Source of the DNA: Rhodospirillaceae bacterium MC!
GTDB lineage: Bacteria > Pseudomonadota > Alphaproteobacteria > MC1
Assembly: GCA_002632265.1 (NCBI GenBank)
Contig: NQOV01000011.1
Coordinates: forward strand, 38,566-102,565
Direction: 5' to 3'
Length of the DNA stretch: 64,000 bases
Below, in pieces: positions 54,828 through 57,581 of the stretch (position 1 is its first letter; each line of letters begins with the position of its first letter). Under the pieces are notes generated by a model. That model was given only the letters and a program-made list of their open reading frames with translations, was not told where the DNA came from and did not search any database. The translations under genes were made by a program, and so were the position numbers.

Positions 54828-57137
54828 ATGCACTCGGAATTATTACAATCCCTACTTGATAACAACAATCTTGATCACGAGACTATTGACAATCTTAAGC
54901 CTATAAATGGTAGAAGTTTAGCCAAGGAAATCAATGGAATTTTAGAGCAAGCCAACAAGGATTATTATCTAAATGATAGCCCAACAATCTCCGATAGTCA
55001 ATATGATAAGCTTAGATCATTACTGGAAAAAATAGTAGATAAATTTAAGGATCGTTACGGATCTTTAACTAAGTTATCCGCATTAACTACAGTCGGAGCT
55101 ACGGTTAGCGAATCAGCTGGCGAATCCAGTAAAAGAAAAAGCTTTAAAAAGATTGTTCATAAAAAGCCCATGTTATCCCTATCCAACGCCTTTTCCAATG
55201 AAGACATGCTCGCATTCCGCCTTAGGGTAAAAAAAACCCTGTCAACAGAGACAAAAGTATCAGCTGATAGTGATTTATTTTCAAGTGATAATCTATCTGT
55301 TGATAGTCTATCGGTTGATAGTTTATCTGTTGATAGTAGTGATGAAATAGCAGAGCATACGGGATTTTATGCCGAGCCTAAAATTGACGGTTTATCCATA
55401 TCTCTTAGATACGAAAAAGGGATTTTAGTATCTGCTTCAACTCGTGGCGACGGTGCTATCGGCGAAGATGTTACAGAAAACATCATGACTATCGCCGAAT
55501 TACCAAAAACCATTTCCCATAATATCCCTGAAGTTTTAGAAGTACGTGGGGAAGTGTATATGAGCAAGGAAGATTTTCTTAATCTTAACGAGCTTATGGA
55601 GAAAAATGGCTCAAAAAAAGTCTTTGCCAACCCTAGAAATTCTGCAGCTGGGAGTTTACGTAATTTAGATGTGGAAATAACCAAAACACGCAAATTAAGC
55701 CTTTTTATTTACGCTTTAGGAGAAGTCATATGCGAAAACTCATCCCAAGACTCATCTCAAGATACATCTCAAGATAGATCCCAAGCTAATTTATGGAAAA
55801 CTCAACAACAAATTATTGAAAAGCTATCAAGTTGGGGCTTTCCCACCAATATACAGCAAAATAAATTATGCAAAAGCATGGCGGAAGTAGAAGAATATTA
55901 CCAACATTTGGCAAGTATCCGCTCGCATTTAGGTTACGATATTGACGGTATTGTCTACAAAGTAAACGATTTACACGCTCAACAGATCATCGGCGAATCA
56001 GGTAGAGTCCCAAACTGGGCCATTGCCCGCAAATTTCCTGCCGAGCAAGCTTTTACCATAGTAAAAGCCATTGATGTCCAAGTGGGAAAGGTCGGAGCGA
56101 TTACCCCAGTTGCTCGCTTAGAACCCATAAACGTCGGCGGTGTTATCGTTTCAAACGCCACCTTACACAATAAGGACGAAATTAAACGCTTAGATATCCG
56201 CATTGGCGACATGGTAACTATCCAACGTGCAGGCGACGTCATACCGCAAATTGTCGAAGTAAAAAAAGAACACCGCCAAACCAACGGCGGAGAAGAAAAC
56301 TTCCCCCAATTCGAATTCCCCAAAAACTGTCCATCATGTAACAGCCCCCTTGTGGAAGACGAAGAAGAAGTGGCCATACGTTGTAAGAATCCCCAATGTG
56401 AGGCTCAAGTACAAGCCATTTTAAAATATTTCGTCTCTCGCCCCGCCTTAGATATCGAAGGCTTAGGCGGTAGCAAAATAGAACAATTATACGAATTAGG
56501 AGTAATTAAATCCCTAAAAGATATCTTCACCATGGAAAACCACAAGCCCCTACTCTTAAGCCAAGACGGTTGGGGCGAAAAATCCGTAAATAAACTACTT
56601 AGTGCCGTTAATGATAAGAAAACAGTAGCCTTAAATAAGTTCATCGGTGCTTTAAGTATCCCTATGATTGGAGCTTCCAACTCCCTATTACTTGCCAACC
56701 ACGCCCAATCCTTAAGTGAGCTATTTAAGATCCTTGATGACGTGGTCGACACCCAAGATTCCGACAATCTCCAAGCTTTAATCAACATCGACGGTTTCGG
56801 CTCGCAAGTAGTCGGAAGCATTTTCACCTACTGGCAAACCAACCGAGCAGAAATCAAAGACCTCTCAACATACTTAAATATTACCCCTATGCCCCAAACC
56901 CCCAAAAGCGAACAAACCCTAACAGGTAAAACCGTCGTATTCACTGGCAAACTAACCCACATCACCCGAGACCAAGCAAAAGCCCAAGCCCAATCCCTAG
57001 GGGCAAAAGTAACCTCCACCATCTCCAAAAAAACCGACCTCCTAATCATCGGCGAAAACGCTGGCAGTAAAAAAACCAAAGCCCAAACCCTAGGCATAAA
57101 AACAATCTCCGAATCCGAATGGCTGGAACTTATATAA
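54828..57137 (+). CDS. ligA: NAD-dependent DNA ligase
   Basis: Adenylation motif EPKIDG, OB fold, Zn finger (CPSCNSP...C..P.C), HhH and BRCT. The ATG at 54828 is preferred over the TTG at 54741 that overlaps recN. Two low-complexity inserts. Confidence 0.93.
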
Positions 57138-57149
57138 ATGATTGCTGAT

Positions 57150-57195
57150 CTCTTTAGTTGGTTTGTCCCTTGACAGACAGTCGCACGCTTTGGGC
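57150..57195 (+). repeat. core-family repeat, short subtype, copy J (forward)
   Basis: CTCTTTAGTTGGTTTGTCCCTTGACAGACAGTCGCACGCTTTGGG, 13 nt after the ligA stop. Confidence 0.8.
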
Positions 57196-57581
57196 AGAAC
57201 TCTTGATATACAGGCCAACTATTTAGGCCTGTAATAGTGAGATATGCAACGTAAAAACAATAGCTTAATGTAAAATAGGCATTTTGATTGATGGCCAACA
57301 TTATGAGTTAAAAATACAGCCTTTATAAAGGTTAGTATTGTATGTATATACACATAATATCCAGTACATTAAAAAACATCATAAATAGATGTTTATGATG
57401 TTTTTGTAAGCTAAAGTATATCTTGACACATAATTATTTTCAAGCATATAAAAACCAACTGGCATACAAGGTATATACGTATACTAATATACTTACACAT
57501 GGACATTTTATAAAGATAATGTCTGTTAAGTTAGAGTATATTATTAATTTTACAGATTGTTATAATTATGTTTAGTTTGAA

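Follow-up and report, generated by a model that had tools for sequence, protein, structure and literature searches.

Tracts rich in A and C and poor in G occupy the coding-strand 3' ends of many genes in a 64-kb stretch (hereafter the window) of an alphaproteobacterial chromosome, Rhodospirillaceae bacterium MC! contig NQOV01000011.1, 36% GC. The observation is real and strong, is confirmed by recomputation and is unusual; such tails are almost never seen in other bacteria. The signal is compositional, not a motif: a search for a shared tail motif gave only a weak enrichment of GCCCAA/AGCCCA. The tails are tentatively read, with a little less than even confidence, as an unstructured, C-rich, G-poor Rho-loading tract, similar to Rho utilisation (rut) sites, within coding 3' ends. 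All results come from this one window of about 50 genes and from control loci outside it.

Third-position A+C (AC3) is higher in the last 50 codons of a gene (the tail) than in the rest of the gene (mean +0.097, Wilcoxon p=1.6e-5, 50 genes) and higher than in mid-gene (p=2.9e-5, 44 genes). Only the A+C axis moves: A+G is unchanged, with C +0.073, T -0.068 and G -0.029. The null model shuffled synonymous codons inside each gene with the amino-acid sequence fixed (2000 shuffles). At four-fold degenerate sites A+C is 0.660 in tails and 0.540 in bodies (z=7.3), a pooled difference reached by 0/2000 shuffles, and tails of 16/45 genes are individually significant (p<0.01, per-gene shuffle). In ligA, AC3 of the last 50 codons is 0.88 (shuffle p=0.001). 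The skew survives amino-acid control, the point on which the earlier note on this DNA had staked its claim. Four-fold A+C depends on the distance to the stop codon within the window, rising smoothly from about 0.50–0.55 beyond 150 codons to 0.67 beside the stop. A by-product of protein composition, or chance, with hydrophilic C-termini using A-rich codons, is next to inconceivable as the source of the tails. K, Q, T and N are enriched in tails, but the fixed-protein four-fold result and the individually significant genes refute this account, and control genomes with the same protein families show nothing.

The hand counts of A+C from which the note started are all reproduced within two percentage points: 74.2% in ligA at 56941–57060 (74% by hand), 85.0% with exactly 5 G in the LtaS-family tail at 7741–7860, 70.8% in the M16 peptidase gene at 15297–15416 (72% by hand), 68.3% at the 3' end of gyrB vs 52.5% mid-gene, 68.3% at the 3' end of hemE and 43.3% at the 3' end of the DAHP synthase gene.

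Genes of the window include trpC/F, an LtaS-family sulfatase gene, tadA, an M16 peptidase gene, mla and lpt genes, hemE, gidA, gidB-parA-parB, a class-II DAHP synthase gene, ruvAB, gyrB, bamD-recN-ligA, tk and dut. Identities of the hand-counted genes are all confirmed by Pfam. Tract boundaries were taken from a three-state hidden Markov model (HMM) segmentation. The tracts, and the site of the composition change in ligA, are as follows.

56835–57119, + strand: ligA 3' end (BRCT domain), A/C tract; A+C 0.74, C 0.34, G 0.13 (HMM, Pfam).
57135–57137, + strand: ligA stop codon TAA, site of the composition change.
7615–7885, + strand: LtaS/sulfatase-family gene 3' end, A/C tract; A+C 0.78, G 0.06, AC3 0.98; no downstream core repeat.
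11694–12446, + strand: tail of a Sel1-repeat gene plus the entire tadA-like deaminase gene, A/C tract of 753 nt; ends at an opposite-oriented core-family element (12438–12515).
15293–15598, - strand: M16 peptidase gene 3' end, A/C tract; a core-family element lies beyond (15150–15296).
27105–27543, - strand: SurA-like gene 3' end, A/C tract; a long-palindromic repeat (26840–27068) abuts the stop.
31955–32287, + strand: hemE 3' end, A/C tract; the next gene begins right after the stop; no repeat.
35117–35394, + strand: DnaJ-domain gene 3' end, A/C tract; followed by a partial core-family element (35419–35550).
35809–36171, + strand: non-coding A/C-rich, G-depleted tract (G 3–4%) just left of a tandem core array; no + strand open reading frame (ORF) of at least 30 aa.
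36777–37252, - strand: gidA (mnmG) 3' end, A/C tract; followed by a core-family element (36690–36799).
42397–42542, + strand: parB 3' end, A/C tract; last gene of gidB-parA-parB, gidB and parA being without a tail.
47461–47656, + strand: ruvB 3' end, A/C tract; convergent with gyrB (HMM, Pfam).
47812–48019, - strand: gyrB 3' end, A/C tract; AC3 0.92.
54629–54814, + strand: recN 3' end, A/C tract reaching into the short spacer before ligA; operon-internal.
62710–63094, - strand: thymidine kinase gene, mostly covered by an A/C tract; followed by core copies (62555–62603).

Tracts are 200–450 nt long, with one of 753 nt, and have A+C 0.67–0.78, C 0.21–0.38 and G 0.06–0.16 (HMM). They lie on the coding strand whichever way the gene points. 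Downstream edges fall between -72 and +7 nt relative to the stop codon, and A+C of the 120 nt past the stop is 0.38–0.57. The earlier note had the composition flipping to G/T at the repeat core. A change of composition is present, but its place is the stop codon and not the core, and it is mostly a return to baseline, not a mirror flip. Short strongly G/T-rich stretches past the stop (e.g. 57138–57167) are conserved repeat sequence, common to copies at unrelated loci. In convergent pairs the + strand turns G/T-rich later only because the tail of the partner gene sits on the other strand. Similar A/C tracts occupy three short intercistronic spacers (9797–9900, 10893–10975 and 53016–53104).

The bias was at first placed at synonymous sites, with conventional amino acids in the LigA BRCT domain. 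Its third-position part holds; its confinement to silent sites does not, and residues of the LigA BRCT domain are shifted too. In the 19 strong tails first codon positions move (C 0.22 vs 0.15, T 0.15 vs 0.21), as do amino acids (K, Q, T and N up; A, V, L and G down). The last 60 residues of LigA, aligned with 19 homologues, contain 12 departures from strongly conserved residues, 10 of them toward A/C-richer codons and 0 away; in the LigA body 30 departures are toward A/C and 24 away (tail-versus-body shift p=7e-4). The gyrB tail bias is almost purely silent because the GyrB C-terminus is very conserved.

The same measurements bear on translational selection, in which C- and A-ending codons would pair exactly with the G34 and U34 tRNAs of a reduced set and decoding selection would grow toward the stop. 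The rise over about 150 codons agrees with it, and so do the independent shifts from T to C among codons ending in a pyrimidine and from G to A among those ending in a purine, and the coincidence of tract ends with stop codons. In Dictyostelium a tRNA-dependent codon preference climbs over the last ~170 codons, a similar scale (PMC8321536). Reported 3' codon trends are, however, far smaller than the effect in the window, which the 1208 control genes lack. The shift also extends to first and second codon positions and to amino acids, the same composition fills the three intercistronic spacers and the non-coding tract at 35809–36171, and the strong dependence on operon position is not predicted by translation alone. 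Selection at decoding is regarded as improbable.

The control set consisted of 80 gyrB-centred 20-kb loci from other proteobacteria (GC 29–71%, 1208 genes). Tail AC3 of at least 0.74 occurs in 3/1208 control genes vs 19/47 window genes. The tail-minus-body mean per locus is 0.002 +/- 0.021 in controls (maximum 0.049) vs 0.099 in the window. Two syntenic recN-ligA loci of the nearest relatives have tail AC3 of 0.36–0.66 and no trend. Rut composition was compared in 78-nt windows within the last 300 nt of each gene, with 894 control genes. C/G of at least 3 is reached by 28% of window genes vs 0.4% of controls, and C/G of at least 2 by 59% vs 7.9%. The gene-body median C/G is 0.89; the maximum 78-nt tail C/G is 4.2 in ligA and 85 in the LtaS-family gene. 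Among 5.8 billion proteins the best LigA match has 46% identity and the best GyrB match 67%; both come from Rhodospirillales-like bacteria. Looking up the exact GyrB and LigA proteins gave no match. The lineage of the window is an orphan.

Tails are concentrated in the last genes of operons. A gene was called terminal when a convergent gene or a spacer of >200 nt follows it; others were called operon-internal. Tail AC3 is 0.730 in terminal genes (n=23) vs 0.565 in operon-internal genes (n=26, p=3.9e-4). A strong tail is limited to the last gene, or the last two, in gidB-parA-parB, ruvA-ruvB, bamD-recN-ligA, lptF-lptG-surA-like and mla...-M16, recN being the extra tailed gene of its unit. The DAHP synthase gene has ruvA-ruvB 148 nt downstream on the same strand and is classed as operon-internal. 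Its lack of a tail, first connected with a missing repeat, is more plausibly due to this internal position; the missing repeat is the weaker explanation.

Repeats of a core family lie behind part of the tails. The core 16-mer GTCTTGACAGACGGTC has 16 matches in the window at no more than 3 mismatches vs 0.14 expected. The composite element comprises one to six ~33-nt units (TCTTGACAGACGGTCGC..CTCTTTGG), and six copies add a conserved ~80-nt module ending in G-runs (TTAGGGGTGGGGGTGGG). It is found mostly in convergent or terminal spacers. The ligA-adjacent core is at 57167–57182, 30 nt past the stop. Three sites with core copies are as follows.

57138–57250, + strand: core-family copy directly 3' of the ligA stop; G/T-rich arm CTCTTTAGTTGGTTTGTC, core CCCTTGACAGACAGTC, hairpin at 57210–57232.
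47680–47772, no strand assigned: core copies in the 146-nt ruvB/gyrB spacer; 17-bp hairpin at 47680–47718 formed from two inverted cores.
36183–36417, + strand: tandem array of six 33-nt core units (GTCGCCCTGCTCGAGCGGAGGTCTTGACAGACG).

Among terminal genes, tail AC3 is 0.86 where a core-family element begins no more than about 120 nt from the stop (n=8) vs 0.66 in the other 15 (p=0.0013). The link to the repeat is not absolute, as had been cautioned from hemE: the LtaS-family gene, hemE, parB and others are tailed without a core element, and some tails (SurA-like gene, dut) adjoin a different repeat family. The core element is neither necessary for tails nor the sole repeat behind them. Two unrelated repeat families set tightly on stop codons behind tails suggest a functional or targeting link.

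If the flanks were copied along with the repeat, through gene conversion or within a mobile element, the tails would be repeat-derived. The stronger tails beside core-family elements would fit this, and the tadA stop lies 6 nt from the C-rich end of its element. This proposal of the earlier note fails in the window: blastn-short between tails and elements, and between tails, finds nothing beyond chance 10–13-mers, so that tails resemble neither one another nor the repeats. They encode conserved gene-specific domains (LigA BRCT, GyrB C-terminus), and many are without any core element. The proposal is considered extremely improbable.

At four-fold sites the composition passes from body to tail with G 0.12 to 0.01, A 0.32 to 0.41, T 0.36 to 0.13 and C 0.21 to 0.45. 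Tail/body ratios are C 2.1, A 1.3, T 0.36 and G 0.08, with a preference order C>A>T>G. The purine fraction is 0.442 in tails vs 0.434 in bodies; G lost approximates A gained, and T lost equals C gained. Arginine AGR/CGN, the one site where a single step gives a synonymous transversion, shifts as well, with CGN:AGR 27:6 in tails vs 231:176 in bodies (odds ratio 3.4, p=0.005). Repeat copies 0–100 nt from tails have an ordinary AT-biased substitution spectrum (G>A 20, C>T 12, T>C 5, A>G 6).

These spectra bear on local strand-asymmetric mutation, the main alternative, possible but doubtful. A template strand that is single-stranded at gene 3' ends would accumulate C to U and A to hypoxanthine deamination, for example through R-loops that form when untranslated RNA, antisense or read-through, runs in from the downstream spacer, and would become G/T-rich as the coding strand becomes A/C-rich, as on the light strand of vertebrate mitochondrial DNA (mtDNA). 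The four-fold shift consists of G to A and T to C changes alone and leaves the purine fraction unchanged, as such a process would give, and the tails, at A.41, C.45, G.01 and T.13, are close in composition to the sense strand of mammalian mtDNA. A near-saturated bias spilling into amino acids is easier to obtain from mutation pressure than from weak silent-site selection. The bias is lineage-specific although Rho is widespread, the 360-nt non-coding tract is equally G-depleted, and the polarity around convergent gene pairs is origin-like, as in the earlier note. Mutation does not account for the arginine shift from AGR to CGN, which is a synonymous A to C transversion beyond deamination and is nevertheless enriched. 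Tracts stop at stop codons even without a following repeat; a mutational field would be expected to ignore reading frames. Repeat copies beside tails show no T>C excess (C>T outnumbers it), and gene bodies lack the opposite bias expected from sense transcription. We know of no bacterial process that would leave the template strand exposed in just the last 300 nt of genes. As to the strand-asymmetric reading of the earlier note, the transition-only shift speaks for it, and the arginine shift, the stop-codon boundary and the repeat spectrum speak against it. An unlikely variant is a lineage with mitochondrion-like local mutation, in which the template strand of unit ends would be chronically single-stranded, e.g. 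in R-loops where Rho-type silencing or deaminated-base repair is weak.

Rho loading is the preferred reading. It was one of three offered by the earlier note and is the best supported of them, by composition, structure, position and the arginine preference for C, although we infer it from these features. Rut sites are at least 70–80 nt long, have C>G, are unstructured and have a pause site within 150 nt (PMC6407284). Tails contain C>G, G-poor windows of at least 70–80 nt. Strong tails have little predicted structure (-10.2 vs -19.8 kcal/mol per 120 nt in their own gene bodies) and are located at transcription-unit ends, with four internal exceptions. Hairpins are found within 150 nt downstream of ligA (57210–57232), ruvB/gyrB (47680–47718) and the SurA-like gene (arms 26956–27066), and are not evident for all tails. 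The favoured shift from AGR to CGN in tails points to a preference for C itself. On this reading the tails would be selected RNA-level signals rather than protein features.

Rho, or another single-strand C-binding factor, would read the tract, and transcription would end there. An mRNA stretch of 200–450 nt would be kept C-rich, G-poor and nearly unpairable at the end of the last reading frame of the unit, sometimes in short spacers. With a genomic GC of 36%, rut-grade composition in a gene (C about 27–38%, G about 5–13%) would require nearly every third position to be C or A, and the same composition pressure would push some residues to A/C codons (K, Q, T, N). Rho loaded in the tail would reach RNA polymerase about 100–200 nt farther along, immediately beyond the stop. 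The core-family repeats, other palindromic repeats or hairpins of that region may make the polymerase pause or stop, or may protect the 3' end. A compact genome would be well served by a rut in this terminal position, the more so if transcription is only loosely coupled to translation.

Several observations weigh against Rho loading. The tracts are inside translated ORFs, whereas Rho is described as a factor that loads where RNA is free of ribosomes, and C-richness does not continue into the untranslated sequence just past the stop. Strong tails are present at the tight internal junctions recN-ligA, hemE-next gene, trpC-trpF and Sel1-tadA, where a terminator would be unwelcome. Nothing comparable is seen in other Rho-containing control bacteria, AT-rich ones included, and mapped Rho sites of AT-rich Borrelia show only a modest C:G rise (PMC10319736). 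This rarity and the modest Borrelia signal leave the strength of the tails unexplained by Rho. The constant four-fold purine fraction is a prediction of transition-only mutation and a coincidence under selection. Tails and intrinsic terminators behave as strict alternatives only as a weak trend (0.66 vs 0.75, n=5 vs 18, not significant). The base of the reading is a single window.

Canonical hairpin-plus-T-run terminators are not enriched over shuffles in the window (10 vs 12.2; 21 vs 14.8); the three clearest follow terminal genes without tails. One candidate lies between ligA and its convergent neighbour.

57375–57402, no strand assigned: AT-only hairpin with T-runs flanking on both strands, between convergent ligA and the gene at 57582–58166; from its sequence it looks like a bidirectional intrinsic terminator.

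Two other explanations of the tails were tried and rejected. Pairing of the tail with the G/U-rich repeat of the 3' untranslated region (UTR) is no better than in shuffles for the ligA tail and element (z=-0.84), and in gyrB the value of z=-2.35 comes from the core inverted-repeat hairpin alone. Antisense genes overlapping the tails are not indicated: an A-poor strand can be expected to hold long antisense ORFs in any case, and their occurrence in the tails is inconsistent.

Gene 5' ends carry a bias of their own. In the first 50 codons, window-wide, third positions have less C (-0.060, p=5e-7) and more G (+0.027). The 5' bias mirrors the 3' tails, and C/G climbs along reading frames. Third-position A+C in the first 50 codons of gidA is only 0.24. 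C depletion in this region would be expected if early Rho loading is avoided.

The tails are best filed, provisionally, as a known kind of signal in a strong form that is embedded in coding sequence and coupled to repeats abutting the stop codon. They share with rut sites a C-rich, G-poor, unstructured composition over at least 80 nt at transcription-unit ends, a C/G well above 1 and, for several tails, hairpin or pause candidates within 150 nt downstream. They differ in being inside the translated 3' end and stopping at the stop codon, not in the 3' UTR, in their length (200–450 nt), in a contrast far stronger than in E. coli or Borrelia, in the depletion of T besides G, and in the presence of some at operon-internal junctions. 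The heavy/light-strand gradient of vertebrate mtDNA likewise has an A/C-rich strand with G almost absent, G to A and T to C changes and constant purines, as on the tail coding strand. The tail asymmetry is, in contrast, local (a few hundred nt), gene-oriented, ends at stop codons and includes the arginine A to C shift; to our knowledge no replication mechanism produces such local tails. Transcription-associated asymmetry is also strand-specific and tied to transcription units, but its usual form is a G/T-rich coding strand along the whole transcript, and the tails are of opposite sign and 3'-only.

Codon-usage gradients toward the stop share the gradual synonymous change over the last ~150 codons. 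Those reported are small, protein-neutral and operon-independent, whereas the tails saturate, alter residues and enter non-coding spacers. As with REP/BIME and ERIC, both repeat families of the window are short, dispersed, non-coding and partly hairpin-forming, and are placed in 3' or convergent spacers, often directly on the stop codon. The core family has many dispersed copies far above chance, as in REP elements and miniature inverted-repeat transposable elements (MITEs). These repeats show no sequence relation to known families in Rfam or, for the 30-nt motif, in the contig collections, and we know of no description of REP coupling to a compositional tract in the upstream gene.

If Rho loading is true, the last gene of each operon would carry a terminator signal within its coding sequence, one strong enough to saturate silent sites and change conserved-domain residues. 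As a "second code" superimposed on proteins it would be uncommonly clean and readable. Operon ends would be callable from sequence alone in such genomes, which would provide a natural test bed for the place and time of Rho loading relative to the last ribosome. If the mutational account is true, the tails would represent a new source of local strand asymmetry in bacteria, acting at the scale of single gene ends rather than of the replichore, by which silent sites and some residues of essential genes (ligA, gyrB) are rewritten. Either way, tails would mislead codon-usage, horizontal-transfer and non-synonymous/synonymous substitution (dN/dS) screens on this lineage.

Some genes have composition or insertions of separate note. 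The tadA-like deaminase gene (11916–12431, MafB19 / dCMP_cyt_deam_1) is A/C-rich throughout (third-position A+C 0.75), and 6 nt separate its stop from the C-rich, reverse-complement end of the core-family element downstream. A - strand ORF at 17395–22998 (1867 aa) consists largely of ~27 tandem 78-nt (26-aa) and 11 tandem 105-nt (35-aa) repeats; at about 45% its GC exceeds that of the surroundings, and A and C are enriched along about 4 kb of its coding strand. LigA (54828–57134) has low-complexity insertions of 14 and 15 residues in or near the adenylation domain, with 769 aa vs about 690 in relatives. GidA (36800–38722) carries the low-complexity insertion TSTNDTSTNGTSLNDTSTNGIST.

For the core family, a consensus fold of the ~80-nt right-hand module is unsupported (-1.76 kcal/mol, no compensatory pairs). 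The 30-nt pattern of the main repeat has no match in genome or metagenome contig collections, and the repeats have no match in Rfam. The second repeat family is unrelated to the core, has the consensus ...GATTGGGATAAATGGGCTAATCTGCACCTTACCTTAGGGCTTATGTAGACGTGAGTACACGTCGCCCTAAGG... and is found at 26840–27068 and 63313–63419. Its 44-nt inverted arms (26956–26999 / 27023–27066) are 86% complementary. Its start coincides exactly with the stop codon in the SurA-like gene (TAA 27063) and in dut (TAG 63414), both of which are tailed. It looks like a MITE or a long-hairpin element that targets, or is retained at, stop codons. The small GC hairpin motif TACAGGCCAACTATTTAGGCCTGTA is found at 57209–57244, past ligA, and inverted at 15069–15104, ~200 nt past the M16 peptidase gene and beyond its core element; it may represent a further short repeat family.

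The divergent lptF/hemE spacer of 560 nt (30747–31305) contains three core copies (30862, 30893, 30939) and a perfect DnaA box (31042–31050), one of only two in the window, with hemE, gidA and gidB-parA-parB nearby. The replication origin adjoins hemE in many alphaproteobacteria. DnaA-box-like 9-mers with no more than 1 mismatch number 42 vs 20.8 expected window-wide and are dispersed, not clustered. Replication-type skew shows no clear switch across the window; gene orientation dominates. Further spacer repeats downstream of genes include a 13-nt unit repeated ~25 times (26305–26629), the 11-nt unit AATACACATTA repeated 5–7 times (3137–3213) and a ~77-nt AT-rich unit with three copies near gidA (36426–36644) and one just past parB (42668–42709).

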